Assembly (NCBI RefSeq): GCF_041886205.1
Contig: NZ_CP169029.1
Length of the DNA stretch: 64,000 nucleotides
Reading direction: 5' to 3' (one strand)
Source: Escherichia coli
GTDB taxonomy: Bacteria; Pseudomonadota; Gammaproteobacteria; Enterobacterales; Enterobacteriaceae
The notes under the pieces are model-generated. The model ran no database searches. It was not told where the DNA came from and saw nothing but the letters and a program-made list of their open reading frames with translations. Positions 3,861-54,373 of the stretch are shown here, one piece after another. Positions within the stretch are counted from its first letter, which is position 1; the number at the start of each line of letters is the position of its first letter. The position numbers were made by a program, and so were the translations under genes.

Positions 3861-4775
3861 ATGAGTCGTTCACAAAATTTACGCCACAATGTGATTAACC
3901 AGGTCATTGATGATATGGCGCGGGGTCATATCCCTTCCCCACTTCCATCGCAAAGTGCGCTGGCGGAAATGTACAACATCAGCCGCACCACAGTGCGTCA
4001 TATTCTCAGCCATTTACGCGAATGCGGCGTCTTGACGCAGGTTGGAAACGACTATGTTATTGCGCGTAAACCTGACCACGATGACGGTTTCGCCTGTACT
4101 ACCGCTTCAATGAGTGAACAAAACAAAGTGTTTGAGCAGGCTTTTTTCACGATGATAAACCAGCGTCAGTTACGCCCTGGGGAAACTTTTTCTGAACTGC
4201 AACTGGCGCGGGCCGCGGGTGTCAGCCCGGTGGTTGTAAGAGAATATCTTTTAAAATTCGGCCGTTATAATCTAATTCAAAGCGAAAAGCGCGGCCAGTG
4301 GAGCATGAAGCAATTCGATCAATCCTACGCCGAGCAGCTGTTTGAGCTACGCGAAATGCTCGAAACACATTCACTTCAGCACTTTCTCAACCTGCCTGAT
4401 CATGATCCCCGCTGGCTGCAGGCGAAAACCATGCTCGAACGTCATCGGCTACTGCGTGACAACATCGGCAATAGCTTTCGCATGTTCTCGCAACTTGACA
4501 GAGATTTTCACTCCTTACTGCTTTCGGCTGCCGACAATATCTTTTTTGATCAATCGCTTGAGATCATCTCAGTCATCTTTCATTTTCACTATCAATGGGA
4601 CGAAAGCGATCTTAAACAGCGCAATATCATTGCCGTCGATGAGCATATGACCATTCTCAGCGCTCTGATTTGCCGCAGTGACCTTGATGCCACCCTTGCG
4701 CTCCGTAACCATTTGAATTCAGCTAAACAATCAATGATTCGATCCATTAATGAGAACACGCGTTATGCTCATTAA
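3861..4775 (+). CDS. lgoR: GntR-family transcriptional regulator of L-galactonate utilisation
   Basis: 304 aa; N-terminal winged-HTH (ISRTTVRHILSHLRECGVL) plus C-terminal FCD-like domain; SD GGAGG before ATG. Confidence 0.82.
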   Translation: MSRSQNLRHNVINQVIDDMARGHIPSPLPSQSALAEMYNISRTTVRHILSHLRECGVLTQVGNDYVIARKPDHDDGFACTTASMSEQNKVFEQAFFTMINQRQLRPGETFSELQLARAAGVSPVVVREYLLKFGRYNLIQSEKRGQWSMKQFDQSYAEQLFELREMLETHSLQHFLNLPDHDPRWLQAKTMLERHRLLRDNIGNSFRMFSQLDRDFHSLLLSAADNIFFDQSLEIISVIFHFHYQWDESDLKQRNIIAVDEHMTILSALICRSDLDATLALRNHLNSAKQSMIRSINENTRYAH

Positions 4776-12498: not shown

Positions 12499-12832
12499 TT
12501 ACCTTAACCTACTCATACGAAGCGGACGAGGATAAAATCCTATCATTTTCCGTTCGCTTCATTATTTTATTTTCTTTCCAATGCCCATTCAAATTAAAAA
12601 TATAACTCTGCCATAACTTCCTGAACACAGATGTAATTACATTGCCACCTCTCATACTTTTAAAAACGATCCATATGACAAGTCGTCCTATTGGGGCGTG
12701 ATAGATGTATTAATTTCCAAATATGCAAACATTCTGATACAGTCCCAAAAAGAAAATAATTACCAACCCAGATAATCAGCAAATAAATTAATGACAGTTG
12801 AATTATAATCAACACGAATACAAGAGATTAAC

Positions 12833-36578: not shown

Positions 36579-36596
36579 TTTCTGCAGTTGTTATTA

Positions 36597-36626
36597 AAGG
36601 ATACCCTTGTGCGAGGGTATCCTTTC
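36597..36626. terminator. Perfect 12-bp inverted repeat between convergent adhesin gene and kptA
   Basis: aaaggataccct / tgtgcg / agggtatccttt. Confidence 0.6.
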
Positions 36627-36701
36627 CGACTGATAACAAACGCTACATTGCCTAATGCGCTGCGCTTATCTGGCCTATATAATCCCTGCAATATATTGAA
36701 T

Positions 36702-37286
36702 TTATTGTTTTTGTGGCCCAGCCGACATGAACGGCCACTCAAGAAACTCAACAGCAACCGTTGATGTCAGCCAGACCCCGTTTTCCGCTTGCCAGAAAGG
36801 GATGCCTCGTTTCGCCATTTCCTGTGCTTTGACGGTTAAGATAACCGGCGATCCGTGTCTTGCTCCCACTTTGCGTGCCGTTGCTTCATCAGCAGAGAGA
36901 TGTACGTAATGACGCTCCCCTGCAATCAGCCCCTGTTTTTTTATCTCGTCAAGGAAACGGCTTGCCGTACCGTGGTAGAGAAACTGTGGCGGTGTTTTTT
37001 CGGCAAAGGAAATGGCGACCTGCGAAGTCGAATGCCCCTGAACCGCGCGGATGCACCTACCATCACTGGAATAACTAAAACGCTTTTTATCGCTGGTGGC
37101 AACCACAGTATCCAGCAATGCACGGGTTAACCGCTTGCCCGCTTTTTGGGCACAGAGTATAAGCTTATCGATATCCGCCCATCCTTCACGGTCAAGTACG
37201 ATACCAATCGCCTCCGGTTTGTGTCGGAGGACAAAACTTAAAAACTTGCTCGTATCCGCCAGCTCTTTTTCGTTGTACTTTGCCAT
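36702..37286 (-). CDS. kptA: RNA 2'-phosphotransferase (Tpt1 family)
   Basis: Starts [25 protein letters not shown] (Tpt1 N-terminal motif); the ORF-track frame extends 34 codons further upstream, so the true start is uncertain. Confidence 0.78.
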
Positions 37287-37523
37287 CTCGTTTTCGTCCC
37301 TGGATTTTCTGTTTTTATTTACTGATGTCATTGTCACTTGGTTTATGAATTTTCTGCAACTCAATCCTGCGCAGAGCCTTTTCCACACAGCGTAATTTTT
37401 CCGCTATGCAAAAAACGCATAGCCAGAAACATACTTGCATTTTCCCCATACCCACATGGCTGATAAGGTTTTTCCGCTCCAGGAATTTTCCTGGCTCAAG
37501 CAACACACAAACACAAAAAAACA

Positions 37524-38219
37524 ATGGGGATTGTTATGACACAACAAGGGGATGCTGTAGCCGGGGAGCTGGCGACAGAAAAAGTGGGCATTAAAGGGTA
37601 TCTGGCTTTTTTTCTCACCATAATCTTTTTTTCCGGTGTTTTTTCCGGGACAGACAGTTGGTGGCGCGTTTTTGATTTTTCCGTTCTGAACGGATCGTTT
37701 GGGCAACTGCCTGGTGCGAATGGAGCCACCACCTCATTTCGCGGGGCGGGTGGCGCGGGGGCTAAAGATGGCTTTCTCTTTGCGCTGGAGCTGGCACCGT
37801 CAGTCATTCTCTCTCTGGGGATTATTTCAATTACCGATGGTCTTGGTGGATTACGCGCCGCGCAGCAGTTAATGACACCTGTGCTAAAACCGTTGTTGGG
37901 CATTCCAGGGATCTGCTCGCTGGCGCTGATCGCTAACCTGCAAAACACGGATGCCGCCGCCGGTATGACCAAAGAGCTGGCGCAGGAAGGTGAAATTACC
38001 GAACGCGATAAAGTGATTTTCGCCGCATATCAAACCAGCGGTAGCGCCATCATCACCAACTACTTCTCTTCCGGCGTCGCGGTGTTTGCCTTTCTGGGCA
38101 CGTCCGTAATCGTACCTTTAGCCGTCATCCTGGTGTTTAAATTTGTCGGAGCCAACATTTTGCGCGTCTGGCTTAACTTCGAAGAACGTCGCAACCCAAC
38201 GCAAGGAGCGCAAGCATGA
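37524..38219 (+). CDS. yjiH: Inner-membrane protein YjiH (nucleoside-recognition-domain-like)
   Basis: 231-aa ORF (alternative ATG at 37536); hydrophobic; 4-bp overlap with yjiG. Confidence 0.72.
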   Translation: MGIVMTQQGDAVAGELATEKVGIKGYLAFFLTIIFFSGVFSGTDSWWRVFDFSVLNGSFGQLPGANGATTSFRGAGGAGAKDGFLFALELAPSVILSLGIISITDGLGGLRAAQQLMTPVLKPLLGIPGICSLALIANLQNTDAAAGMTKELAQEGEITERDKVIFAAYQTSGSAIITNYFSSGVAVFAFLGTSVIVPLAVILVFKFVGANILRVWLNFEERRNPTQGAQA

Positions 38220-38677
38220 CAACTCAGGTCCGCAAAAATGTCATGGATATGTTTATCGATGGTGCGCGCCGTGGCTTTACTATCGCCACGACCAACCTGC
38301 TGCCAAACGTGGTGATGGCGTTTGTCATCATTCAGGCGCTGAAAATTACCGGCCTGCTCGACTGGGTGGGGCATATCTGTGAACCCGTAATGGCGCTGTG
38401 GGGATTACCCGGTGAAGCGGCAACCGTCCTTTTAGCCGCATTAATGAGTATGGGCGGCGCAGTCGGTGTTGCCGCCAGTCTGGCGACCGCCGGCGCATTA
38501 ACCGGTCACGATGTCACCGTTTTACTGCCCGCGATGTATTTAATGGGCAACCCGGTGCAAAATGTCGGTCGCTGCCTGGGGACAGCCGAAGTGAATGCCA
38601 AATATTACCCGCATATCATTACGGTCTGCGTGATTAACGCATTGCTGTCGATCTGGGTTATGCAGCTTATTGTTTAA
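38216..38677 (+). CDS. yjiG: Inner-membrane protein YjiG
   Basis: 153 aa; ATGA overlap with yjiH; synteny with iadA. Confidence 0.72.
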   Translation: MTTQVRKNVMDMFIDGARRGFTIATTNLLPNVVMAFVIIQALKITGLLDWVGHICEPVMALWGLPGEAATVLLAALMSMGGAVGVAASLATAGALTGHDVTVLLPAMYLMGNPVQNVGRCLGTAEVNAKYYPHIITVCVINALLSIWVMQLIV

Positions 38678-38689
38678 CAAGGAGTTACC

Positions 38690-39862
38690 ATGATTGATTA
38701 TACCGCAGCCGGTTTTACCCTGCTGCAGGGAGCGCATTTGTATGCGCCGGAAGATCGGGGAATTTGCGATGTCCTCGTCGCTAACGGCAAAATTATCGCC
38801 GTTGCCAGCAATATCCCTTCTGACATTGTACCGGACTGCACGGTTGTCGATCTCAGCGGGCAGATCCTCTGTCCTGGTTTTATTGATCAACACGTCCATT
38901 TGATTGGTGGTGGCGGTGAAGCAGGTCCCACGACGCGCACGCCAGAAGTGGCGCTAAGTCGCCTGACGGAAGCGGGCGTCACGTCAGTGGTTGGTCTGCT
39001 GGGCACCGACTCTATCTCTCGCCACCCGGAATCCCTGCTCGCCAAGACCCGTGCGCTCAATGAAGAAGGCATCAGCGCCTGGATGCTGACCGGCGCTTAT
39101 CATGTCCCTTCCCGCACCATTACAGGTTCCGTGGAAAAAGACGTGGCGATTATCGATCGTGTGATTGGCGTGAAATGCGCCATCTCTGATCACCGTTCTG
39201 CCGCACCGGACGTTTATCACCTGGCTAATATGGCGGCGGAATCCCGCGTTGGCGGTTTGCTCGGCGGTAAACCTGGCGTCACCGTGTTCCACATGGGCGA
39301 CAGCAAAAAGGCGTTACAGCCTGTCTATGACCTGCTGGAAAACTGCGATGTGCCGATCAGCAAGTTGCTGCCGACCCACGTTAACCGCAACGTTCCGTTG
39401 TTTGAGCAGGCGCTGGAGTTCGCGCGCAAAGGCGGCACTATCGATATCACCAGCAGCATTGACGAACCGGTCGCCCCTGCCGAAGGTATTGCGCGCGCCG
39501 TTCAGGCGGGTATTCCGCTGGCACGCGTCACCCTCAGCTCCGACGGCAACGGTAGCCAGCCGTTCTTCGATGACGAAGGGAATTTAACCCATATCGGTGT
39601 TGCCGGTTTTGAAACGTTGCTGGAAACCGTGCAGGTGCTGGTCAAAGACTATGATTTCAGTATCAGCGATGCCCTGCGCCCGCTCACCAGTAGCGTAGCC
39701 GGTTTCCTTAACCTGACCGGGAAAGGCGAAATTCTGCCAGGCAATGATGCTGACTTGCTGGTCATGACGCCAGAACTGCGCATTGAGCAGGTATACGCTC
39801 GCGGCAAACTGATGGTCAAAGACGGCAAAGCCTGCGTGAAAGGAACGTTTGAAACGGCTTAA
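38690..39862 (+). CDS. iadA: Isoaspartyl dipeptidase (amidohydrolase superfamily)
   Basis: 390 aa; metal-binding HxH motif (GFIDQHVHLIGGGGE); SD AAGGAG. Confidence 0.85.
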   Translation: MIDYTAAGFTLLQGAHLYAPEDRGICDVLVANGKIIAVASNIPSDIVPDCTVVDLSGQILCPGFIDQHVHLIGGGGEAGPTTRTPEVALSRLTEAGVTSVVGLLGTDSISRHPESLLAKTRALNEEGISAWMLTGAYHVPSRTITGSVEKDVAIIDRVIGVKCAISDHRSAAPDVYHLANMAAESRVGGLLGGKPGVTVFHMGDSKKALQPVYDLLENCDVPISKLLPTHVNRNVPLFEQALEFARKGGTIDITSSIDEPVAPAEGIARAVQAGIPLARVTLSSDGNGSQPFFDDEGNLTHIGVAGFETLLETVQVLVKDYDFSISDALRPLTSSVAGFLNLTGKGEILPGNDADLLVMTPELRIEQVYARGKLMVKDGKACVKGTFETA

Positions 39863-39926
39863 ACGGTTGTCAGCCGCCCGAATGGACGTAGAATGCCCGC
39901 AAGGGCGGCTGACAGAGTAAAACGTA

Positions 39927-40763
39927 ATGGATGACTGTGGTGCGATTTTGCATAATATTGAAACCAAATGGCTTTATGATTTTCTGACCCTGGAAAAATG
40001 CCGCAATTTTTCCCAGGCGGCAGTCAGTCGCAACGTCTCGCAACCGGCATTCAGCCGCCGCATCCGTGCGCTGGAACAGGCGATTGGTGTTGAATTGTTT
40101 AACCGCCAGGTAACGCCGCTGCAACTCTCAGAACAAGGGAAAATCTTCCATTCGCAGATCCGCCATCTGTTGCAACAGTTAGAGAGCAATCTGGCAGAGC
40201 TGCGTGGCGGCAGCGATTACGCGCAACGAAAAATCAAGATAGCCGCTGCACACTCTCTTTCCCTCGGGCTGTTACCGTCCATTATCAGCCAGATGCCGCC
40301 GCTCTTTACCTGGGCAATTGAAGCTATTGATGTCGATGAAGCGGTCGATAAACTGCGTGAAGGGCAAAGTGACTGTATTTTTTCCTTTCACGACGAAGAT
40401 TTGCTGGAAGCGCCGTTTGACCACATTCGCTTATTTGAATCTCAATTGTTCCCTGTCTGCGCCAGTGACGAACACGGAGAAGCACTTTTTAACCTCGCGC
40501 AGCCACACTTTCCGTTACTGAATTACAGCCGCAACTCCTACATGGGGCGATTGATTAATCGCACCCTGACGCGCCACAGTGAGTTAAGTTTCAGCACCTT
40601 TTTTGTCTCTTCGATGAGCGAGCTTTTAAAGCAGGTTGCCCTCGACGGCTGTGGGATTGCCTGGCTGCCGGAGTACGCCATCCAACAAGAAATTCGCAGC
40701 GGGAAGCTCGTTGTACTGAATCGGGACGAACTGGTGATCCCGATTCTGGCCTATGCATACTGA
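39927..40763 (+). CDS. hypT: LysR-family hypochlorite-responsive regulator, C-terminally truncated allele
   Basis: LysR wHTH (LEKCRNFSQAAVSRNVSQPAFSRRIRALE); ORF ends at TGA 40761-40763 and the same frame continues for 24 more sense codons ([24 protein letters not shown]) before the next stop; 278 + 1 + 24 = 303, the length I recall for HypT. Confidence 0.75.
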   Translation: MDDCGAILHNIETKWLYDFLTLEKCRNFSQAAVSRNVSQPAFSRRIRALEQAIGVELFNRQVTPLQLSEQGKIFHSQIRHLLQQLESNLAELRGGSDYAQRKIKIAAAHSLSLGLLPSIISQMPPLFTWAIEAIDVDEAVDKLREGQSDCIFSFHDEDLLEAPFDHIRLFESQLFPVCASDEHGEALFNLAQPHFPLLNYSRNSYMGRLINRTLTRHSELSFSTFFVSSMSELLKQVALDGCGIAWLPEYAIQQEIRSGKLVVLNRDELVIPILAYAY

Positions 40764-40830
40764 ATGAATACCCGCATGAATCCAGTTGCCGAACGCTTCT
40801 GGCGTGAACTGCGCGAGCTGGAGATTGTAC

Positions 40831-41223
40831 TTAGCTGACATTCTCCAGCGTCGCACTACGCCAACCGCCATTATCCCAGACCAGATCAAACGTTAGCGGT
40901 TCATCGTCGTGGTACAGCATTATCTCAAGGCTGATCGCCAGCGTGTGACTGTACGCTTCTTTCAGATTGACCTGCAACGCCGCAATCCGTGGCTCATGAA
41001 ATAACAGTGCAGAACGCAGCTGACGGCAATACCAGCTCTGGAGATGTTTGTCGCTCTGGTTATGCACTTGCCACTCGGGCATGCCTGAAACAAGTAATGA
41101 CGGTAATGCCGAAAGAGGAGAATTAAAAAGAGTGAGGAGATCGCTGCATACCGATTTACGCAGCAATGACGTTTTATTGCCTGAAATTTTAGGTAAAACA
41201 GCCTGAAGTGATTGGCGCATCAT
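40831..41223 (-). CDS. iraD: Anti-adaptor protein stabilising RpoS
   Basis: 130 aa from [11 protein letters not shown]; synteny between hypT and yjiC. Confidence 0.78.
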
Positions 41224-41894
41224 TTTGCGCACTCCTGACGTTTAGCAACATATGCGGCTTGCCCTGAACACCGGGCACCACTGTATTGATGCTCATTTTC
41301 CATAGCCATTCCCTTTTGTTCATTACATCCATGTCAGTCTGAGACAGGCCTGAATCCTGTCAGCAAAGTATAAAACCTTACTTGCCTATGAATATCTACT
41401 GACTTTTCAGGAAAAAAGTCATGATTTGATAAAAATCATCAAACTCAAAAAAAAACCGCTAGTATATTCTGAATATTCCGAATAGTTACGTAGATGAAAA
41501 TACTTGTCACCGCCGCTACTTAATTCCGGTTGGAAATTATTTATTTCCGCATAATCATCTATGTATTATTTGAAACAATTAGTTTGTAAATAATATAAAT
41601 TGATAACATATCAAATACATCAAAAATACCATTCACAGGCATTATTAATATAGACCTCAATATAGCAACATCAAATTCCAATTAGTAATAAGATATGCTT
41701 TTAAATTGCATGCAAATAATTTTAAATGAGCGTTTTTTGATACTTTAGAGTGTTTCCTACCATTTAATATCACTGTGTAGAGTTGATATCACTACAACAG
41801 AAACATGCATGTCATTTGTTTACTTCTCTTTTACTACAGAAAAATTTATCTATTTTTCTAAACATCAGTGAAATACTCATAAAAGGTAACTATT

Positions 41895-42725
41895 ATGTCT
41901 ATGCCATTAAGCAATGCCGCTAATAACCAATTCTATATAAATAATCACTTCCTTCATCATCCAAAAGTCGACAATGAGTTAACACGTAAATATGAACGTG
42001 CACGCCTGGATACGGAAAATATCTATCTTCTGCCTCTTACTCGTGGCAATAACCATAATTACGATGGAAAAAGCGTTGTCGAAATTAGAAAACTTGATAT
42101 TAGTAAAGAGTCCTGGCCATTTAATTATGTGACAGAAACATGCAGAGAATCCGATGGTATTACAACAACAGGTCGTATGCTCTATCGAAACTTGCGAATT
42201 ACCTCAGCTTTAGACGAAATATATGGTGGTATATGTAAAAAGGCGCATGCTGCCACAGAGTTAGCAGAAGGATTACGGCTAAATTTATTTATGAAGAGCC
42301 CTTTCGATCCTGTTGAGGACTATACAGTTCATGAAATAACATTAGGCCCTGGTTGCAATGTTCCTGGTTATGCCGGAACCACGATAGGATATATTTCAAC
42401 CCTTCCAGCTTCTCAGGCAAAAAGATGGACCAATGAGCAGCCAAGGATTGATATCTATATTGATCAGATAATGACGGTAACAGGGGTAGCAAATTCTTCC
42501 GGATTCGCCCTTGCCGTATTACTTAATGCTAATATTGAGTTGGGTAATGACCCAATAATTGGTATAGAAGCCTATCCCGGTACCGCGGAGATCCATGCAA
42601 AAATGGGATATAAAGTTATCCCGGGTGATGAAAATGCACCACTCAAACGTATGACTCTGCAACCGTCATCTCTTCCAGAACTGTTTGAATTAAAAAATGG
42701 TGAATGGAATTATATTGGTAAATAA
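41895..42725 (+). CDS. yjiC: Uncharacterised protein YjiC
   Basis: 276-aa ORF in AT-rich DNA preceded by about 650 bp of AT-rich non-coding sequence; synteny. Confidence 0.65.
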   Translation: MSMPLSNAANNQFYINNHFLHHPKVDNELTRKYERARLDTENIYLLPLTRGNNHNYDGKSVVEIRKLDISKESWPFNYVTETCRESDGITTTGRMLYRNLRITSALDEIYGGICKKAHAATELAEGLRLNLFMKSPFDPVEDYTVHEITLGPGCNVPGYAGTTIGYISTLPASQAKRWTNEQPRIDIYIDQIMTVTGVANSSGFALAVLLNANIELGNDPIIGIEAYPGTAEIHAKMGYKVIPGDENAPLKRMTLQPSSLPELFELKNGEWNYIGK

Positions 42726-42865
42726 CTACCAGGAAGAATGAGTACTAACATTCAGGTTATACAGATAGCTAAACAATACCCTGCAATTTACAAAGTAATA
42801 CTCATTGCGACTTCTTAATTTAAGAAAGCGCAAGGAACGTTTACCCTTGCGCTTATTATAATAAG

Positions 42866-43639
42866 TCAGGCGTCGACTTTATCCAGCGGCCATGAATCAA
42901 ACAGATAGCCATCAAAATAAATATCGTCAACGTTCGAGAATTCCAGCAGACGTTGCTTAACGTTTTCCAGATGCTGCCACATTGCCAGCTTCGCCGCTCG
43001 GGCATCTTTTTTGATTAACGCGGCGAGGATCTGTTTGTGATCGCCCAACCACTCTTTGCGATACAGGCTGTCATCCAGATGGCTGTGCAACTGGATCCAC
43101 ATTGGATTGTTTTCCCGCCACTGCCAGGACTGACGGAACAGCTCCACCAGCATGCTGTTATGCGTTGCTTCGGCAATAGCGAGATGGAACTGCATGTCAC
43201 CGCTTTCGCTGCTGCCCGGCGCACTGGAAGCCAGTTCACGCTCTTCCAGTTGCAATGCCTGACGCATTTTGACGATATCTTCGCGGGTAGCCTGCAGGGC
43301 GGCAAACTCGGCGATGTTGCTCTCAAGAAGCTGTCGCGCCTGCAACAGCTCAAAAGGACCCGCATCATTGCAAACGTTGGCATCCGGACTGTCTGTGTTG
43401 TGGCTGCCTGAGCTATCAAGAACATAGATACCGGCACCCCGGCGCACTTCCACCAGCCCTTTGATCTCCAGCATGATCAGCGCTTCACGTACCACCGTCC
43501 GCGTGACATCAAGCATTTCTGCAATTTCACGCTCCGGCGGCAGCCGTTCGCCAGGATTGTACGGCGTCTTTATGATCAGATCGCGGATCATCGCCCCGAC
43601 TTCCTGGTAAGGTCTTTGCGCAGAGGTGGCAGATTTCAT
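42866..43639 (-). CDS. uxuR: GntR/FadR-family repressor of hexuronate utilisation
   Basis: 257 aa; N-terminal wHTH (DVTRTVVREALIMLEIKGLVEVRRGAGIYV) plus FCD domain. Confidence 0.9.
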   Translation of the reverse strand: MKSATSAQRPYQEVGAMIRDLIIKTPYNPGERLPPEREIAEMLDVTRTVVREALIMLEIKGLVEVRRGAGIYVLDSSGSHNTDSPDANVCNDAGPFELLQARQLLESNIAEFAALQATREDIVKMRQALQLEERELASSAPGSSESGDMQFHLAIAEATHNSMLVELFRQSWQWRENNPMWIQLHSHLDDSLYRKEWLGDHKQILAALIKKDARAAKLAMWQHLENVKQRLLEFSNVDDIYFDGYLFDSWPLDKVDA

Positions 43640-43675
43640 GGTGTTGTGTCCGTTAGGTGCGGTTAATCAAATTTT

Positions 43676-43710
43676 GCCGGATGCGGCGTGAACGCCTTAT
43701 CCGGCCTACA
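43676..43710. repeat. REP element
   Basis: gccggatgcggcgtgaacgccttatccggcctaca. Confidence 0.75.
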
Positions 43711-43782
43711 ACGGGCAATTTTACGGCCCCCGTTAATCTCAAACTATACCATTAGCACTGGAAGTTGGCACGTACAGGTGGG

Positions 43783-43832
43783 CAAAAAAACGAAAACTGG
43801 TCAACCAAATATCAGTTTGATTGACCAGTAAG
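43783..43832 (-). terminator. Intrinsic terminator downstream of uxuB
   Basis: Minus-strand hairpin actggtcaa / 16-nt loop / ttgaccagt followed by a T-run (plus-strand aaaaaaacgaaa at 43783-43793). Confidence 0.55.
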
Positions 43833-43852
43833 TCTGTAGGGTAATCAGTTAG

Positions 43853-45313
43853 TTACAGCGCAGCCACACACTCGCGCGCACCGCGTTCGCACAGCTGCTG
43901 ATATGCCGCCGTCACCGCGCCAACAAAGTCCGCATTTTGCGGCAGATCATCGGCAAAAATACCGCTCAGGCCCAGCAACGCTTTCACGCGGTCTGCGCCC
44001 TGATTCTGCGCGTTGATCTTCTGGAACTCCGCCAGCATCGGGTCAACTACGTCAATGGCATTACCCTGCTCATCCACGCCCTGGGTGTAGCGCATCCAGC
44101 CAGCCACGCCCAGCGCCAGGTGACGCCAGCTGCCGCCGTTTTGCAGGTGCAGACGCACCGGATCCAGCAGACGCTGCGGTAACTTCTGGCTGCCGTCCAT
44201 CGCAATCTGCCAGGTACGGTGACGCAGAGACGGGTTGCTGAAACGCTCGATCAGCAGCGTCGCATAGGCGTTCAGGTCCGTACCTTCCGGCATCGACAGC
44301 GTTGGCGCTTGTTCCTGCATCATCAGGGCAAAGGCCGCTTTGCGATAATCCGGGTTAGTCATGGTGTCGGCAATAGTTTCATAGCCGCCGAGGTAACCGA
44401 GGTATGCCAGGAAAGAGTGGCTGCCGTTCAGCATACGCAGCTTCATCATTTCGAACGGCACAACGTCTGCAACGAACTGTGCGCCCACTTTATCCCAGTC
44501 CGGGCGACCATTAACGAAGTTATCTTCAATCACCCACTGACGGAACGGTTCGCAGGCAATGGCGCACGGGTCGTAAACACCCAGCTGGTCAGCAATTTCC
44601 TGTAAGGTTTCTGGCGTCGCCGCCGGAACGATGCGGTCAACCATGGTGCACGGGAAGGTGACGTTCTCTTCAATCCATGCCGCCAGCTGCGGATCGCGTG
44701 CCTGAGCCAGCCCAAGAACGGCAACCTTCGCCACATGACCGTTTTCTCGCACGTTGTCGCAGGACATCACCGTAAACGCTTTCAACCTTTTTTCACGACG
44801 CAGGCGCAACGCTTCTACGATGTAACCAATCGCGGACTTCGGCGCAGTCGGGTTTTCCAGATCGTGCTTGATCAGCGGGTTATTGAGATCCAGTTGACCG
44901 CTTGCCGCATCAGCGCAGTAGCCTTTTTCCGTGACCGTTAGAGAGACAATCGCCGTTTGCGGACGCGCCATCGCGTTGAGAATACCTTCGCAGCCATCGA
45001 TTTCCGGATGCAGCGCTTCTTTCATTGAACCGATAATTTTCAGCTCGGTGCTTTCTGCGCCTTTTTCCGCCACGGTGTACAGCAGTTGCTGTTTTTTCAG
45101 GTTTTCGATCAGCACGCGGTCGTTGCCTGGCATCAGGTTAACTTCGCAGATACCCCAGTCGCTGTCGGTGCTTTCCAGCAGGTGATGGGTATACAGCGCC
45201 TGGTGCGCGCGGTGAAACGCCCCGCAACCGAGATGCACAATGCGTGATTCCAGACGAGAATGATCCCATGACGGGCGGGCAACCGGCAGATTGCTGTCAA
45301 CAATAGTAGTCAT
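43853..45313 (-). CDS. uxuB: D-mannonate oxidoreductase (fructuronate reductase)
   Basis: 486 aa; mannitol-dehydrogenase-family Rossmann fold; synteny uxuA-uxuB-uxuR. Confidence 0.9.
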   Translation of the reverse strand: MTTIVDSNLPVARPSWDHSRLESRIVHLGCGAFHRAHQALYTHHLLESTDSDWGICEVNLMPGNDRVLIENLKKQQLLYTVAEKGAESTELKIIGSMKEALHPEIDGCEGILNAMARPQTAIVSLTVTEKGYCADAASGQLDLNNPLIKHDLENPTAPKSAIGYIVEALRLRREKRLKAFTVMSCDNVRENGHVAKVAVLGLAQARDPQLAAWIEENVTFPCTMVDRIVPAATPETLQEIADQLGVYDPCAIACEPFRQWVIEDNFVNGRPDWDKVGAQFVADVVPFEMMKLRMLNGSHSFLAYLGYLGGYETIADTMTNPDYRKAAFALMMQEQAPTLSMPEGTDLNAYATLLIERFSNPSLRHRTWQIAMDGSQKLPQRLLDPVRLHLQNGGSWRHLALGVAGWMRYTQGVDEQGNAIDVVDPMLAEFQKINAQNQGADRVKALLGLSGIFADDLPQNADFVGAVTAAYQQLCERGARECVAAL

Positions 45314-45393
45314 CGTAAACTCCAGAATCCGTCTTCAGAGAGTGACGGCAAGGAAGAAGGAACCGGCACGGCGCGCAGCCATGCCGGTGGATA

Positions 45394-46578
45394 TTAACGG
45401 CTAAAGAAAGCGCGCTGGATCGCCAGTTCGACACCGCGAACTTCGGCCAGGCCTTTCAGACGACCAATTGCGGAGTAACCTGGGTTGGTTTTCTTCTTCA
45501 GGTCGTCCAGCATCTGATGACCGTGGTCCGGACGCATCGGGATCAGGTCTTCTTTGCCTTCCGCTTTACGACGGTGTTCTTCTTCAACAATCGCTTTCAC
45601 CACTTCGTACATATCAACGTCACCGTTCAGGTGCGCCGCTTCGTGGAAGGTTTTGGGGTTATCTTCACGCATGGTGGAGCGCAGATGGGTGAAGTAAATG
45701 CGCGGACCAAACTGCTTGATCATATCAACCAGATCGTTGTCAGCACGCACGCCGTAGGAACCGGTGCACATGGTGAAACCGTTCGCCATGCTGTTTACGG
45801 TATCAACCATCCACTGCATATCTTCAATGGTGGAAACAATGCGCGGCAGGCCGAGGATCGGGCGCGGCGGATCGTCCGGGTGAACAGCCATACGCACGCC
45901 AACTTCTTCGGCAACCGGAATAATCGCTTTCAGGAAGACCGCAAAGTTTTCGCGCAGTTTGGCTTTGTCGATATCTTTGTACAGCTCCAGGTGTTTACGG
46001 AACTGGTCGAGGGTGTAGCCTTCTTCCGCGCCCGGAAGACCAGCAATGATGTTACGGGTCAGACGCGCTTTGTCTTCGTCGCTCATAGTGGCGAAGCGAA
46101 CAGCAGCCTGAGCAATTTCTTCTTCGGCGTAATCCGCTTCCGCGCCTGGACGTTTCAGGATATGCATTTCGAATGCAGCGAATTCGATCTGGTCGAAGCG
46201 CAGCGCTTTGGAGCCGTCTGGCAGCACGTATTCGAGGTCAGTACGGGTCCAGTCGAGCACCGGCATGAAGTTGTAGCACACGGTGCGAATGCCGCACTGC
46301 GCCAGGTTGCGCAGAGTCTGCTGATAGTTAGCGATCCACTGCTCATAGTTGCCAGTGTGGGTTTTGATATCTTCGTGAATTGGTACGCTTTCTACGACAG
46401 ACCACACCAGGCCTGCGTCTTCAACGATCGCCTTGCGTTTGAGGATCTCTTCTACGGACCATACTTCGCCGTTCGGGATATGGTGCAGCGCGGTAACCAC
46501 GCCAGTTGCGCCCGCCTGACGGACATCAGCTAAAGAAACCGGATCGTTTGGGCCGTACCAGCGCCAGGTCTGTTCCAT
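45394..46578 (-). CDS. uxuA: D-mannonate dehydratase
   Basis: 394 aa from [16 protein letters not shown]; synteny. Confidence 0.9.
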
Positions 46579-46740
46579 GATTTTTCCTCTTTCACATAGT
46601 GGGTTCCACAGCAAAGAGACGCGGAACCCTGGAGTTGTTTAGGTATCCGGATGAACAACCAGACCGCAGCCGTGGCGTTGCATCGGATGAGATGGCGTAT
46701 AAGTTCTACCTTTTGGTAAGACATGTCAACCCGAATTCTG

Positions 46741-46757
46741 AAATTGGTTAACCACAT
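46741..46757. promoter_or_regulatory. UxuR/ExuR operator-like palindrome in uxuA upstream region
   Basis: aaattggttaaccacat with TGGTTAACCA palindromic core. Confidence 0.5.
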
Positions 46758-46972
46758 CACAAGAAATCAACTCTATTGCTGGTTGATGCAAATGACAACA
46801 AAGGAGAAGCGGCGGTTAGTAATCGGGGGATGTGACATTCATCGCAATAATGGTTGACCAATTTACATAACGTGTCGCCCAAAATAACAATGGATTAACC
46901 TACTCCCCCATTGCATAAGTTGTGACCGACACAACAAAACTGATGTTGTTGCAAAGATTGCTATTTAGTTTT

Positions 46973-46987
46973 GGTATAAAAGGTATA
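46973..46987 (+). promoter_or_regulatory. Tandem GGTATA repeats, NanR-operator-like, about 50 bp upstream of nanM
   Basis: GGTATAaaaGGTATA; NanR is known to bind GGTATA repeats. Confidence 0.4.
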
Positions 46988-47036
46988 CAGGCACATGGTG
47001 CGACATTTGAATTCCAGCGATCAGGAGTAATTCACA

Positions 47037-48143
47037 ATGAATAAAACAATAACGGCGCTTGCTATCATGATGGCTTCATTTGCCGCAAACGCGTCTGTAT
47101 TACCGGAAACTCCTGTGCCATTTAAAAGTGGTACCGGAGCAATTGATAACGACACTGTCTACATTGGTTTAGGTAGCACAGGTACGGCATGGTACAAGCT
47201 GGATACACAGGCCAAAGATAAAAAATGGACAGCGTTAGCTGCATTCCCTGGCGGACCAAGAGATCAAGCAACCTCGGCATTTATTGATGGCAATCTGTAT
47301 GTGTTTGGCGGCATTGGCAAAAACAGCGAGGGCTTGACTCAGGTATTTAATGACGTACACAAATACAACCCCAAAACCAATAGTTGGGTTAAATTGATGT
47401 CGCACGCACCGATGGGCATGGCGGGTCATGTAACTTTTGTACACAACGGCAAGGCTTATGTTACTGGCGGTGTTAACCAGAATATCTTCAATGGCTATTT
47501 TGAAGATCTCAACGAGGCTGGAAAAGATTCAACCGCTGTAGATAAAATCAACGCTCACTATTTTGACAAAAAAGCAGAAGATTATTTCTTCAATAAGTTT
47601 CTGTTGTCTTTTGATCCCTCAACACAGCAATGGAGTTACGCTGGCGAATCCCCCTGGTACGGAACGGCTGGTGCGGCGGTTGTGAATAAAGGTGATAAAG
47701 CCTGGCTTATTAATGGCGAAGCCAAACCAGGATTGCGAACGGATGCCGTATTTGAACTTGATTTCACCGGTAATAATTTAAAATGGAATAAGCTTGCTCC
47801 CGTCTCATCACCAGATGGCGTCGCTGGCGGTTTTGCGGGGATAAGCAATGATTCTCTTATATTTGCCGGAGGGGCCGGATTCAAAGGTTCACGAGAAAAT
47901 TACCAGAACGGTAAGAACTATGCGCATGAAGGCCTGAAAAAATCATATAGCGCTGATGTTCATCTTTGGCATAACGGGAAATGGGATAAATCGGGCGAAT
48001 TGTCGCAAGGTCGGGCCTACGGAGTATCATTGCCCTGGAATAATAGTTTATTAATTATTGGCGGTGAAACTGCAGGCGGCAAAGCGGTGACGGATTCAGT
48101 TTTGATCTCTGTGAAGGATAATAAAGTCACAGTACAAAACTAA
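47037..48143 (+). CDS. nanM: N-acetylneuraminate mutarotase (Kelch-repeat beta-propeller, periplasmic)
   Basis: 368 aa; signal peptide MNKTITALAIMMASFAANA; repeated GG-containing Kelch blades (YVFGGIG, YVTGGVN, IFAGGAGF, LLIIGGE). Confidence 0.85.
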   Translation: MNKTITALAIMMASFAANASVLPETPVPFKSGTGAIDNDTVYIGLGSTGTAWYKLDTQAKDKKWTALAAFPGGPRDQATSAFIDGNLYVFGGIGKNSEGLTQVFNDVHKYNPKTNSWVKLMSHAPMGMAGHVTFVHNGKAYVTGGVNQNIFNGYFEDLNEAGKDSTAVDKINAHYFDKKAEDYFFNKFLLSFDPSTQQWSYAGESPWYGTAGAAVVNKGDKAWLINGEAKPGLRTDAVFELDFTGNNLKWNKLAPVSSPDGVAGGFAGISNDSLIFAGGAGFKGSRENYQNGKNYAHEGLKKSYSADVHLWHNGKWDKSGELSQGRAYGVSLPWNNSLLIIGGETAGGKAVTDSVLISVKDNKVTVQN

Positions 48144-48207
48144 CGCTTCAGGGCCCCAGTAAAGGGGCCCTGCTATCAATTTATCATATCAATTACGCGA
48201 AAATTAT

Positions 48208-49188
48208 ATGGACGCAATAATATCGCCCGATTATTACTATGTTCTTACCGTTGCTGGTCAGTCTAATGCCATGGCGTATGGCGAAGGACTGCCATTACCG
48301 GACAGGGAAGATGCGCCTCATCCCAGAATTAAACAATTAGCAAGATTTGCGCATACGCATCCCGGAGGCCCGTCATGTCACTTTAACGACATTATTCCAC
48401 TGACTCACTGCCCACACGATGTTCAGGATATGCAGGGTTATCACCATCCTCTGGCAACGAATCATCAAACACAGTACGGCACCGTTGGCCAGGCACTGCA
48501 TATTGCACGGAAATTACTGCCCTTCATTCCTGATAATGCAGGGGTTCTCATCGTTCCATGTTGTCGTGGCGGCTCGGCTTTTATCGCAGGCAGCGAAGGG
48601 ACATATTCAGAACGGCACGGAGCCAGCCATGATGCTTGTCGTTGGGGAACGGATACTCCGCTATACCAGGATTTAGTCAGCAGAACGCGAGCCGCACTGG
48701 CAAAAAATCCGCAGAACAAATTCCTCGGCGTATGCTGGATGCAAGGCGAATTTGACTTAATGACCTGTGACTACTCGTCACACCCTCAACACTTTAATCA
48801 TATGGTTGAAGCCTTTCGTAGGGATCTAAAACAATACCATTCTCAGCTTAATAAAATTACTGACGCGCCGTGGTTTTGCGGCGATACCACCTGGTACTGG
48901 AAAGAAAATTTCCCTCATGCGTATGAAGCTATTTATGGCAATTATCAAAATAATGTTTTAGCTAATATTATTTTCGTCGACTTCCAGCAACAAGGTGAAA
49001 GAGGACTGACGAACGCGCCTGATGAAGACCCGGACGATTTAATCATGGGATATTACGGTTCAGCGTACCGGTCACCGGAGAACTGGACGACGGCACTGCG
49101 AAGCAGTCATTTCAGCGCGGCAGCCCGTCGGGGGATTATTTCTGACAGGTTTGTAGAAGCAATTTTGCAGTTTTGGCGCGAAAGGTGA
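48208..49188 (+). CDS. nanS: 9-O-acetyl-N-acetylneuraminate esterase (SGNH-like)
   Basis: 326 aa directly downstream of nanM; LTVAGQSNAM Ser-containing motif near N-terminus. Confidence 0.8.
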   Translation: MDAIISPDYYYVLTVAGQSNAMAYGEGLPLPDREDAPHPRIKQLARFAHTHPGGPSCHFNDIIPLTHCPHDVQDMQGYHHPLATNHQTQYGTVGQALHIARKLLPFIPDNAGVLIVPCCRGGSAFIAGSEGTYSERHGASHDACRWGTDTPLYQDLVSRTRAALAKNPQNKFLGVCWMQGEFDLMTCDYSSHPQHFNHMVEAFRRDLKQYHSQLNKITDAPWFCGDTTWYWKENFPHAYEAIYGNYQNNVLANIIFVDFQQQGERGLTNAPDEDPDDLIMGYYGSAYRSPENWTTALRSSHFSAAARRGIISDRFVEAILQFWRER

Positions 49189-49195
49189 GCGTTCA

Positions 49196-49846
49196 TTAAT
49201 TTGATTTATTCGCATCCATTAGCGCTTTTAACTGCTCCGGCGTAAACGGTGGTTTGCGTCGGTGCAGCATCGCATGGCAATTAGGGCACACAGGAAGCAA
49301 ATCATTAACTGGATCCAGCTGGTAATCCTCTTTAATGGCTGAAAGCGGCACCAGGTGATGCACATGGATAAAGCCTTCAGCGATATCACCATAGATCTTC
49401 ACCAGATCAACGCCGCATACGTTGCATTGGCATCCATGATGTTCGACCGCTTTATCTCGGGCCTTTTTATCGCGTTCATAGCGGTTTACTGTCACCTTTA
49501 TCGCCGCACCTTCAACGTAGGTCCCCTGCGACGGCAGCTCATCCGGGAACAGAACGTCGGCTATGGGAGCCGCAGCGGCTTTATCCTGATGAATATGAAA
49601 TCCCTGCTCTATGAGTAGCTTGACACATTTAGATTTTATTCCGCCGGTGAAATCCGCAGGGGTAAATTGCGTCCCCGTCATCAATGTCGCTGCGATGCCA
49701 GCAATCGCCTTCGAGGGGTAACGTCGGCCATGATATTCAATTTCATACAACCGTGCAGGCTGGAACTGATGAGTTTCTCCCGCATCCCATAAATGAATAG
49801 CTTCGATGATATACCGCCGCGGAAGATGATCGGGGAGTTTATTCAT
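49196..49846 (-). CDS. HNH endonuclease with N-terminal putative DNA-recognition domain (candidate modification-dependent restriction enzyme)
   Basis: 216 aa; SD AAGGA; C-terminal HNH motif (CQCNVCGVD ... HVHHLVPL ... CPNCHAMLH); stop codon 8 bp from nanS stop (convergent). Confidence 0.7.
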   Translation of the reverse strand: MNKLPDHLPRRYIIEAIHLWDAGETHQFQPARLYEIEYHGRRYPSKAIAGIAATLMTGTQFTPADFTGGIKSKCVKLLIEQGFHIHQDKAAAAPIADVLFPDELPSQGTYVEGAAIKVTVNRYERDKKARDKAVEHHGCQCNVCGVDLVKIYGDIAEGFIHVHHLVPLSAIKEDYQLDPVNDLLPVCPNCHAMLHRRKPPFTPEQLKALMDANKSN

Positions 49847-49992
49847 AGAGAATGTCCTTATACGTTCTCAGAACAAGCAGCAAAAAAACAAATGAGATCA
49901 AAGTAATATATCTTCACTTGCAGGCTTGAACAGCAGAAAATTTGCGAGCATGATCGCAATTATTTCACTGCCAGGGAGGTAATGACTCCAAC

Positions 49993-50496
49993 TTATTGAT
50001 AGTGTTTTATGTTCAGATAATGCCCGATGACTTTGTCATGCAGCTCCACCGATTTTGAGAACGACAGCGACTTCCGTCCCAGCCGTGCCAGGTGCTGTCT
50101 CAGATTCAGGTTATGCCGCTCAATTCGCTGCGTATATCGCTTGCTGATTACGTGCAGCTTTCCCTTCAGGCGGGATTCATACAGCGGCCAGCCATCCGTC
50201 ATCCATATCACCACGTCAAAGGGTGACAGCAGGCTCATAAGACGCCCCAGCGTCGCCATAGTGCGTTCACCGAATACGTGCGCAACAACCGTCTTCCGGA
50301 GCCTGTCATACGCGTAAAACAGCCAGCGCTGGCGCGATTTAGCCCCGACATAGCCCCACTGTTCGTCCATTTCCGCGCAGACGATGACGTCACTGCCCGG
50401 CTGTATGCGCGAGGTTACCGACTGCGGCCTGAGTTTTTTAAATGGCGGAAAATCGTGTTGAGGCCAACGCCCATAATGCGGGCGGTTGCCCGGCAT
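49993..50496 (-). CDS. insB: IS1 transposase InsB
   Basis: 167-aa ORF matching IS1 InsB ([19 protein letters not shown]...). Confidence 0.9.
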
Positions 50497-50690
50497 CCAA
50501 CGCCATTCATGGCCATATCAATGATTTTCTGGTGCGTACCGGGTTGAGAAGCGGTGTAAGTGAACTGCAGTTGCCATGTTTTACGGCAGTGAGAGCAGAG
50601 ATAGCGCTGATGTCCGGCGGTGCTTTTGCCGTTACGCACCACCCCGTCAGTAGCTGAACAGGAGGGACAGCTGATAGAAACAGAAGCCAC
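50415..50690 (-). CDS. insA: IS1 protein InsA
   Basis: 91 aa, zinc-finger [37 protein letters not shown]; overlaps insB as in IS1 (frameshift fusion InsAB'). Confidence 0.9.
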
Positions 50691-50766
50691 TGGAGCACCT
50701 CAAAAACACCATCATACACTAAATCAGTAAGTTGGCAGCATCACCCAGCAAACGAACCTGGATGAT

Positions 50767-51057
50767 TTGCCGGATAAAGCCAGCATCATTGACGCGTTTT
50801 TTACCTTTGCTCAACGCGAACAGCAACGTGAAGCAGAAGCCTTGATCAAAGAAGAAAATCTCAATGAAGAGGCGGCGAAACGCTATATTCGCACGTCTTT
50901 AAAACGCGAATACGCCACCGAAAATGGCACGGAATTAAACGAGACATTGCCAAAACTCAGTCCGTTAAATCCGCAATATAAGACGAAAAAACAGACGGTT
51001 TTCCAGAAGATCGTCGCGTTTATTGAGAAGTTTAAAGGTGTAGGCGGGCAGATATAA
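50767..51057 (+). pseudogene. Truncated ORF (C-terminal fragment) abutting the IS1 end
   Basis: 96-codon frame beginning 22 bp after the IS1 terminus; charged, helical-looking sequence; followed by a perfect hairpin cctgatctg/cagatcagg; identity unknown. Confidence 0.35.
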
Positions 51058-51241
51058 TGTATTAATCCGAACCTGATCTGGCAGATAGCTGTCAGATCAG
51101 GACTGAGCTAATACAAATTAATGTCGAACCGAAAATACCAACGCCTGTACCAACATTTTTCGTTTGCGATGGGTTGGAATTGGTTAGCCCTGAGAGAGTT
51201 AAAATAGCGAGAAAGATAGGTAACTAACGGATTTCAGACAC

Positions 51242-51266
51242 AAAAAAAGCCGCTCTTGAGCGGCTC
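51242..51266 (-). terminator. Rho-independent terminator of leuX
   Basis: Minus strand: gccgctc / tcaa / gagcggc followed by a T-run (plus-strand aaaaaaa at 51242-51248). Confidence 0.75.
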
Positions 51267-51282
51267 GATTTGCATACGGTGT

Positions 51283-51367
51283 GGTGCCGAAGGCCGGACT
51301 CGAACCGGCACGTATTTCTACGGTTGATTTTGAATCAACTGCGTCTACCGATTTCGCCACTTCGGCA
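51283..51367 (-). tRNA. leuX: tRNA-Leu (anticodon CAA)
   Basis: 85-nt minus-strand sequence GCCGAAGTGGCGAAATCGGTAGACGCAGTTGATTCAAAATCAACCGTAGAAATACGTGCCGGTTCGAGTCCGGCCTTCGGCACCA; anticodon loop TTCAAAA; next to ahr as in K-12. Confidence 0.92.
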
Positions 51368-51561
51368 CTGAAGAGGTATGCGGAAAACGTTGTGGATTAT
51401 ACCTGTCGCACGCCACCATGCAAGCGCCAGCTTGCTCGCACCTCGCTAAGTGCTGAAATTTTCAGCATTGCATACAGCGATGTGTAACCTTTGTCACACT
51501 CCAGGCACCCCGCCCTGCCATGCTCTACACTTCCCAGACCACACCAGAGAAGGACCAAAAA

Positions 51562-52581
51562 ATGTCGATGATAAGAAGCTATGCCGCAAAAGAAGCGGGC
51601 GGCGAACTGGAAGTTTATGAGTACGATCCCGGTGAGCTGAAGCCACAAGATATTGAAGTGCAGGTGGATTACTGCGGGATCTGCCATTCCGATCTGTCGA
51701 TGATCGATAACGAATGGGGATTTTCACAATATCCGCTGGTTGCCGGGCATGAGGTGATTGGGCGCGTGGTGGCACTCGGGAGCGCCGCGCAGGATAAAGG
51801 TTTGCAGGTCGGTCAGCGTGTCGGGATTGGCTGGACGGCGCGTAGCTGTGGTCACTGCGACGCCTGTATTAGCGGTAATCAGATCAACTGCGAGCAAGGT
51901 GCGGTGCCAACAATTATGAATCGCGGCGGTTTTGCCGAGAAGTTGCGTGCGGACTGGCAATGGGTGATTCCACTGCCAGAAAATATTGATATCGAGTCCG
52001 CCGGGCCGCTGTTGTGCGGCGGTATCACGGTCTTTAAACCACTGTTGATGCACCATATCACTGCTACCAGCCGCGTTGGGGTAATTGGTATTGGCGGGCT
52101 GGGGCATATCGCTATAAAACTTCTGCACGCAATGGGATGCGAGGTGACAGCCTTTAGTTCGAATCCGGCGAAAGAGCAGGAAGTGCTGGCGATGGGTGCC
52201 GATAAAGTGGTGAATAGCCGCGATCCGCAGGCACTCAAAGCACTGGCGGGGCAGTTTGATCTCATTATCAATACTGTGAACGTCAGCCTCGACTGGCAGC
52301 CTTATTTTGAGGCGCTGACCTATGGCGGTAATTTCCATACGGTCGGTGCGGTTCTCACGCCGCTGTCTGTTCCGGCCTTTACGTTAATTGCGGGCGATCG
52401 CAGCGTCTCTGGTTCTGCTACCGGCACGCCTTATGAGCTGCGTAAGCTGATGCGTTTTGCCGCCCGCAGCAAGGTTGCGCCGACTACCGAACTGTTCCCG
52501 ATGTCGAAAATTAACGACGCCATTCAGCATGTACGCGATGGTAAAGCGCGCTACCGAGTGGTCCTGAAAGCCGACTTCTGA
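51562..52581 (+). CDS. ahr: NADPH-dependent aldehyde reductase (Zn-ADH family)
   Basis: 339 aa from [14 protein letters not shown]; Zn-ADH motif [12 protein letters not shown], Cys cluster CGHCDAC, Rossmann GIGGLGH. Confidence 0.85.
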
Positions 52582-52710
52582 TCCCTTTGCCGGGTGCCTG
52601 TCGCCCGGCACTTAAATCTCTTTGGAAGGCATCTCGCAATCTGCTTAATTTAGCGGTGAAGAGTGCATAGCCGTTGCCTATACTCCAGGCAGGAAACTGG
52701 AGGAAATCTC

Positions 52711-54213
52711 ATGAGTGAACCCCTGTTAATTGCCCGCACGCCGGACACAGAACTGTTTTTACTGCCGGGAATGGCTAACCGTCACGGGCTGATTACTGGC
52801 GCAACGGGGACGGGTAAAACTGTCACGCTGCAAAAACTGGCGGAGTCTCTATCGGAAATCGGTGTTCCGGTGTTTATGGCCGATGTGAAAGGCGATCTGA
52901 CCGGCGTCGCGCAGGCAGGAACGGCGTCGGAAAAACTGCTCGCAAGGCTTAAAAATATCGGCGTCAATGACTGGCAACCGCATGCCAATCCGGTGGTGGT
53001 GTGGGATATCTTTGGCGAGAAAGGCCATCCGGTGCGGGCGACGGTTTCGGATCTGGGGCCGCTGTTGCTGGCGCGGCTGTTGAATCTCAACGATGTGCAA
53101 TCTGGCGTGCTGAATATCATCTTCCGCATTGCTGACGATCAGGGGCTGTTACTGCTCGACTTTAAAGATTTGCGGGCGATTACCCAGTACATCGGCGATA
53201 ACGCCAAATCTTTCCAGAATCAGTACGGTAATATCAGTAGCGCATCGGTTGGTGCCATCCAGCGCGGATTACTGTCGCTGGAACAGCAAGGCGCAGCACA
53301 CTTCTTTGGTGAGCCGATGCTGGATATCAAAGACTGGATGCGCACCGATGCCAACGGTAAAGGCGTTATCAATATCCTCAGCGCCGAGAAACTTTATCAG
53401 ATGCCGAAACTGTACGCCGCCAGCCTGCTGTGGATGCTTTCAGAGTTGTATGAACAATTGCCGGAAGCGGGCGATCTGGAGAAACCAAAACTGGTGTTTT
53501 TCTTCGACGAGGCACATCTGCTGTTTAACGATGCACCGCAGGTACTGCTGGATAAGATTGAGCAGGTGATAAGGCTTATTCGCTCAAAAGGCGTGGGCGT
53601 CTGGTTCGTTTCGCAAAACCCGTCTGATATTCCGGATAATGTGCTCGGCCAGCTCGGTAATCGCGTTCAGCACGCTTTGCGGGCTTTTACGCCCAAAGAT
53701 CAGAAAGCAGTGAAGGCAGCGGCGCAAACCATGCGGGCCAATCCGGCATTTGATACCGAAAAGGCAATCCAGGAACTGGGGACCGGCGAGGCGTTAATCT
53801 CGTTTCTCGATGCAAAAGGAAGTCCTTCTGTGGTGGAACGGGCGATGGTGATTGCGCCTTGTTCGCGGATGGGACCGGTGACGGAAGATGAGCGCAATGG
53901 CTTGATTAATCACTCTCCGGTGTATGGCAAGTACGAGGATGACGTGGACCGGGAATCCGCCTATGAGATGTTGCAAAAAGGCTTTCAGGCCAGTACCGAG
54001 CAGCAAAATAATCCTCCCGCGAAAGGGAAAGAGGTGGCGGTGGATGACGGTATTCTTGGTGGATTGAAGGATATTTTGTTTGGCACTACCGGACCACGCG
54101 GCGGGAAGAAAGATGGTGTGGTGCAAACAATGGCGAAAAGCGCCGCCCGCCAGGTGACGAATCAGATTGTACGCGGGATGTTGGGGAGTTTGCTGGGGGG
54201 GAGAAGAAGGTAA
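52711..54213 (+). CDS. yjgR: DUF853-family P-loop NTPase
   Basis: 500 aa from [11 protein letters not shown]; Walker A GATGTGKT; Walker B-like [10 protein letters not shown]. Confidence 0.8.
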
Positions 54214-54373
54214 GTCAGGCGCGATTTGTCTTTGCCTGATGCGACGCTGGCGCGTCTTATCATGCCTACACCACTGCAACATATTGGATTTTCATGATTT
54301 TTCAGGCATGAACGAAGCACACTTTGCTAACAATAATAAAGGGAGCTTTAGCTCCCTTTATTCGTTCATCAGG

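Follow-up and report, generated by a model that had tools for sequence, protein, structure and literature searches.

Evidence for an IS1-associated deletion in the resident defence cluster between nanS and leuX of an Escherichia coli chromosome

Deletion of DNA adjacent to a resident IS1 and recombination between two IS1 copies both belong to the classical biology of this element, and Reif and Saedler are said to have reported IS1-promoted deletion in 1975. Insertion sequences that lack a target duplication usually result from adjacent deletion or from recombination between two insertion sequences, and deletions of the adjacent kind were often small at first and became larger later in the E. 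coli long-term evolution experiment (LTEE; PMC11708052). The region of the tRNA gene leuX is known as hotspot #37, a site of the genome given over to defence systems, AbiEii among them, where 68% of the instances are without a detectable mobile element (Hochhauser et al., 2023, PMC10121019). Of the 41 defence hotspots of E. coli this one is the most occupied, with defence genes in 97% of isolates, and it holds type IC restriction-modification (R-M) and PT-related defence (EcoSal Plus review, PMC12707154). In K-12, the interval from leuX to nanS is occupied by KpLE2 and measures about 40 kb in MG1655, in line with the original prediction for this DNA, which had placed a large element there.

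The locus described here lies in a 64-kb stretch of E. coli DNA, referred to as the window. It matches hotspot #37 in its position at leuX, in its flanking genes (leuX, ahr and yjgR) and in its defence content, which comprises an hsdR remnant and an HNH gene in the window and AbiE plus hsdMSR in its relatives. The likeness extends to the ancestral content, which comprised type IC R-M, AbiEii, a PT-related restriction gene and a type IV nuclease and included no recognizable mobile element. The window differs from the hotspot as described in being nearly emptied, with one intact defence-type gene left.

The gap between nanS (ORF 48208-49188), which borders the interval, and leuX (tRNA-Leu(CAA), 51282-51366, minus strand, recognized by ARAGORN and Rfam) measures 2,093 bp and contains an HNH gene, a copy of IS1 and a 3' fragment of hsdR. 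The original prediction had described much the same contents, namely an HNH gene, an IS1 and a truncated ORF within about 2.1 kb, and the truncated ORF can now be named as the last 312 bp of hsdR. The gene for a McrA-like HNH endonuclease (49196-49846, minus strand; assigned from the Pfam HNH domain and from homologues with ScoMcrA_N and HNH) is intact and encodes 216 aa. Upstream of it lie 131 bp of non-coding DNA (49847-49977), identified by alignment to relatives as the residue of the divergent intergenic region between the HNH gene and a phosphorothioate-DNA restriction gene. IS1 occupies positions 49978-50745 (minus strand) and abuts the hsdR remnant (50746-51057, plus strand), which belongs to type IC (EcoR124 family) and consists of 103 codons and a stop codon. 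The 224-bp spacer between hsdR and leuX (51058-51281) contains an imperfect inverted repeat (51058-51115) and the intrinsic terminator of leuX (51247-51266, minus strand). This arrangement was matched in none of 5,426 complete E. coli genomes, many of which carry longer versions of it.

The origin of the interval is most directly seen in an undeleted relative (L024, scaffold_6 of ENA sample ERZ28577560), which was located through an exact-protein look-up. Window positions 45879-49977 correspond to L024 1-4099 and positions 50746-60000 to L024 12806-22060, with 1 mismatch in each block, i.e., 2 mismatches in total across 13.3 kb of flank. The two sequences that meet IS1 in the window are collinear and non-adjacent in L024, where they end at 4099 and resume at 12806 with 8,706 bp between them, which is the configuration of a deletion scar. 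The segment missing from the window has a G+C content of 44.3% versus 53.7% in the core flank. In L024 it carries a stub of the phosphorothioate-DNA restriction gene, a 61-aa ORF, AbiEii, AbiEi (DUF6088), DUF4942, hsdM, hsdS and most of hsdR, of which the first 2,805 of 3,117 bp (90%) are lost. The closest complete genome, ET201 (99.4-99.6% identical), gives the same picture, with 9,943 bp absent from the window and the order nanS, HNH, a 150-bp endonuclease stub, AbiEii/AbiEi, DUF4942, hsdM, hsdS, hsdR and, directly, leuX. Comparison with strain 3045 again points to a deletion, here of 11.5 kb, with the order given in brackets (nanS, truncated HNH, a phosphorothioate-DNA-binding restriction endonuclease, McrC, McrB, DUF4942, hsdM, hsdS, hsdR). 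Very probably, therefore, an IS1-associated deletion removed 8.7 kb from a resident defence cluster, an event made visible by the undeleted relative. Judged from the near-identical sequence of L024, which is direct evidence for it, the deletion appears to be recent.

The window contains no integrase gene between leuX and nanS, as had been noticed before, and so lacks the hallmark of a tRNA-borne island. Both 33261-49977 and 50746-60000 are collinear without gaps with relatives that have no integrase there, and on the other side of leuX the genes ahr and yjgR follow directly, leaving no room for the misplaced integrase island that had been considered. The intact cluster of near-isogenic relatives (L024, ET201 and others) is likewise free of an integrase, with hsdR abutting the leuX terminator; the absence of the gene from the window is thus not due to the IS1 deletion. 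The search for attachment-like repeats of the leuX 3' end, suggested at the outset, was carried out with probes of 30 and 18 nt, which at up to 3 mismatches matched the tRNA gene alone in the window. With the tRNA end present just once, the leuX attachment site is unoccupied. Near-isogenic relatives that do carry integrase-borne elements in leuX each carry, directly at the hsdR spacer, a 24-31-bp repeat of the 3' end of the tRNA gene. These elements, which include one with ThsB_TIR (L025), a P4-like satellite (L026/L020) and other islands in ECONIH5 and strain 3045, all sit between leuX and the hsdR spacer. From these comparisons, the cluster from HNH to hsdR seems to behave as the chromosomal side of attB, inserted elements displacing the hsdR spacer as a whole. 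The 3' end of hsdR and its spacer are contiguous with leuX in 203 of the 5,426 complete genomes.

The best surviving alternative is that the interval is the decayed stump of a P4-like, integrase-borne island in leuX, from which the IS1 deletion took both the integrase and the cargo. The low G+C content of the cluster would fit this, as would the scar of the HNH 5' end that K-12 has next to nanS, at the end of KpLE2 remote from leuX. Furthermore, a sequence 75% identical to positions 51124-51281 stands between leuX and intB in K-12 and W444, so this arm could derive from an old element. However, the intact, integrase-free cluster of the relatives with hsdR directly at the leuX terminator, the missing repeat of the leuX 3' end and the displacement of the entire spacer by newly arrived elements all speak against it, as does the conservation of the terminator-proximal 54 bp of the leuX spacer in Salmonella. 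When the leuX-distal arm was compared with a phage collection for a P4-like origin, tRNA-level and Salmonella chromosomal matches were the only ones obtained. An island stump is accordingly improbable on balance. What remains is the stump of a resident defence cluster without an integrase, and not of an integrase-borne island such as KpLE2; the proposal of a decayed islet at the leuX hotspot holds, with this correction as to what decayed.

The left junction lies at 49977/49978, and alignments to ET201, DAX4 and L024 all end exactly at 49977, 5 bp ahead of the position at which the phosphorothioate-DNA restriction gene starts in relatives. This exact junction is absent from the 5,426 complete E. 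coli genomes. As IS1 is a multicopy repeat, an assembler might have collapsed two direct copies around the 8.7 kb and so produced an apparent deletion. Assemblers usually break at repeats and seldom drop unique sequence, which counts against such an artefact. In addition, an independent draft genome from this lineage (L013) has a contig that terminates at a distance of 1 bp from the left junction of the window, as expected at a repeat boundary, whereas undeleted relatives such as L024 read through this point without a break. Analogous deletions are also found in many closed genomes. An assembly error is hence very hard to sustain, and a true loss of the 8.7 kb remains the preferred reading.

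The IS1 copy, of the IS1A/B type and the single one within the window, was assigned from its ORFs, its ends and its identity to IS1B. It is complete, as originally stated, with a length of 768 bp and terminal inverted repeats of 23 nt that begin GGTAATGACTCC and GGTGATGCTGCC and place it in the IS1 family. It contains insA (50415-50690) and the insB frame (49993-50496), with the A6C frameshift motif AAAAAAC of the insA/insB' arrangement at element position 306, and is 99.5% identical to the annotated IS1B of strain W444. The 9 bp on either side, tgccaggga and cagcaaacg, differ as reported, agreeing at 2/9 positions; within 14 bp the longest common string is 3 bp, and a search around the element for a hidden target-site duplication with shifted ends gave none, nor did realignment produce a 9-bp repeat. 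The same procedure detected perfect 9-bp duplications at simple IS1 insertions in DAX4 (gaggccgta) and 3045 (ggcgggcag), so the absence of a duplication in the window is real. Such an absence is expected for a deletion junction and is no argument against the element being IS1. A simple insertion whose duplication decayed later, next to an unrelated deletion, is ruled out for practical purposes by the junction alignment to L024, as the flanks are identical to this undeleted reference as far as the ends of IS1 yet map 8.7 kb apart, and agree with each other so poorly. The view that the locus arose by IS1-mediated deletion or two-copy recombination, and not by simple insertion, is upheld by these collinear and widely separated flanks.

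The ancestral cluster consisted of HNH, the stub of the phosphorothioate-DNA restriction gene, AbiEii/AbiEi, DUF4942, hsdM, hsdS, hsdR (type IC), the leuX terminator and leuX. IS1 may then have entered the cluster and caused one or more adjacent deletions through intramolecular transposition; alternatively, two directly oriented copies may have recombined. The outcome is one intact IS1 set between the HNH upstream region, on its left, and the terminal 312 bp of hsdR, on its right, with a presumed loss of the type IC R-M system and the AbiE module and retention of the McrA-like HNH gene and a ythB-like ORF. As far as the route can be inferred, insertion followed by one or more adjacent deletions is slightly favoured, and recombination between two copies is nearly as likely. 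The preference comes from staggered endpoints in the same lineage, where the contig end of L013 and the left junction are 1 bp apart and a draft contig of L012 has an IS1 175 bp further in. No mosaic pattern that would signal recombination between IS1 copies was seen in the window element; given that IS1 copies are identical within a genome, recombination would leave no trace. Among the 5,426 complete genomes, no simple IS1 insertion with a duplication was found at either junction.

IS1 elements without a duplication and joined to deletions in the same cluster occur in W444, DAX4, ECONIH5, SC516 and B-JRPT-4119, and in strain 2017.20.01CC an IS1 is fused to a larger rearrangement there. A third of the staggered endpoints is found in L016 (GCA_054664295.1, 2370-3185), a strain that shows 2 mismatches to the window over 5.8 kb towards leuX and has an IS1 in hsdR, 47 bp upstream of the right junction. 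It was considered as an intermediate of stepwise deletion and rejected, as its other flank is an autotransporter gene, the mark of an independent rearrangement. The joining of this IS1 to an autotransporter gene indicates that independent IS1 hits are also common. The locus shares with classical IS1 deletions the retained intact element, the lack of a target-site duplication, the collinear and non-adjacent flanks and the staggered endpoints in related strains. It differs in nothing of kind; just the particular endpoints are new.

The hsdR fragment corresponds to positions 871-973 of 976 of the PADLOC REase_I model (E 3e-29) and is collinear with the full 1038-aa HsdR of two relatives (L024/L015), which ends in PF12008 EcoR124_C. 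Full-length HsdR in relatives consists of HSDR_N, ResIII, SWI2_SNF2 and EcoR124_C, of which the C-terminal 103 codons alone remain in the window. The stub is a pseudogene and, judged by what it retains, should be inert and non-functional. Its junction with IS1 (50737-50760) recurs base-identical and in the same orientation in 7 complete E. coli genomes, beside ykgJ (16036-16055 in L006 and L007; search among 5,426 complete E. coli genomes). In the leuX context the exact right junction had no match among these genomes, the matches coming solely from the unrelated context. The ykgJ-linked hsdR fragment differs at 22/290 positions (7.6%) versus 3-6/290 for leuX-linked alleles, and the simplest reading is that the shared junction may reflect independent insertion at an IS1 hot spot. 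A wider proposal is that the 3' end of EcoR124-family hsdR is a sequence-specific hot spot for IS1 and that erosion of the leuX cluster by IS1 is recurrent and selected, conceivably through a loss of restriction that favours DNA uptake. It draws on the ykgJ junction, on the IS1 of L016 47 bp away and on at least 6 further IS1 junctions without duplication in the cluster of other strains, and is rather unlikely as a whole, the suggested selection included.

The feature is real but ordinary, being a known element and a known type of deletion in a known hypervariable defence hotspot. Its general importance is small, and its value lies in being a clean example of insertion sequences stripping defence systems from the most heavily used hotspot of E. 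coli. The window strain and strains of the L024 type form a near-isogenic natural pair (2 mismatches in 13 kb) that differs by type IC R-M and AbiE, and could serve to measure the costs and benefits of these systems. For annotation, the hsdR stub would be entered as a pseudogene and the leuX attachment site as empty.

The one intact defence-type gene of the interval encodes a protein with a Pfam HNH domain at residues 141-197 of 216, and its homologues carry PF26345 ScoMcrA_N together with PF01844. Matches to PDB sequences comprise ScoMcrA residues 29-93 (E 2.7e-5) and the HNH domain of E. coli McrA (6ghc, E 4.9e-4), and PADLOC returned weak mREase_IV matches. NCBIfam gave nothing useful for either protein tested. 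The protein shows the beta-beta-alpha-Me HNH motif CxxC...HH...N...CxxCH (Cys4). Its family is large (>7,000 proteins at E < 1e-5), and in 1,231 of the 5,426 complete E. coli genomes the region of this gene stands intact next to nanS. The domain content makes the protein a putative modification-dependent restriction nuclease of type IV, and its gene is the left end of the defence cluster that has survived. It resembles ScoMcrA and EcoKMcrA in having an N-terminal ScoMcrA_N head and a C-terminal Cys4 HNH motif, but neither an SBD nor an SRA reader domain was seen in it, so that the readers of phosphorothioate and methylated DNA present in ScoMcrA (SBD and SRA-like) are missing. The ScoMcrA head domain has no known function (PMC6224610). 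The distance from the HNH start codon back to the IS1 end is 131 bp, so the promoter of the gene may or may not be intact.

A small ythB-like ORF of 29 aa (49107-49196, minus strand) follows the HNH gene. Its translation, MNAHLSRQNCKIASTNLSEIIPRRAAALK, is the same as that of a product marked PF23516 YthB in another relative (L011). Its start codon and the stop codon of HNH share bases (TAATG), and it is antisense to nanS at the 3' end of that gene; in K-12, ythB is kept even though the body of the HNH gene is deleted there.

The window and K-12 share the leuX-nanS interval, at whose nanS end K-12 still has ythB and a remnant of the HNH 5' end. They differ in that K-12 has an intB pseudogene beside leuX together with fec, sgc and other genes, whereas the window is free of an integrase and contains an hsdR remnant that has no counterpart in K-12. 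The two also differ in the leuX-distal arm. This 158-bp stretch (51124-51281) exists in two diverged forms, that of the window and ET201 being 75% identical to that of K-12 and W444; each form has its own terminator hairpin, and in K-12 and W444 an integrase gene follows directly. The scar in K-12 (L008 41003-41126) is 84% identical to window positions 49818-49942, covers the 5' end of HNH and its upstream region, and lies directly at nanS, which indicates that the HNH end of the cluster predates the KpLE2 arrangement of K-12.

Identity to ET201 is 99.58% to the left of the islet (33261-49977) versus 98.0% to the right (50746-53086). This drop suggests a possible recombination boundary coincident with the hotspot. 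Elsewhere, window positions 46901-46995 provide 95 bp where K-12 has 12,507 bp, including nanC, all of the fim operon (fimB-fimH) and gntP. With the fim operon stretch thus replaced, the lineage is one without type 1 fimbriae. The upstream region of uxuA is fused to the last 22 bp of nanC, and this deletion is common to ET201 and the L024-type relatives.
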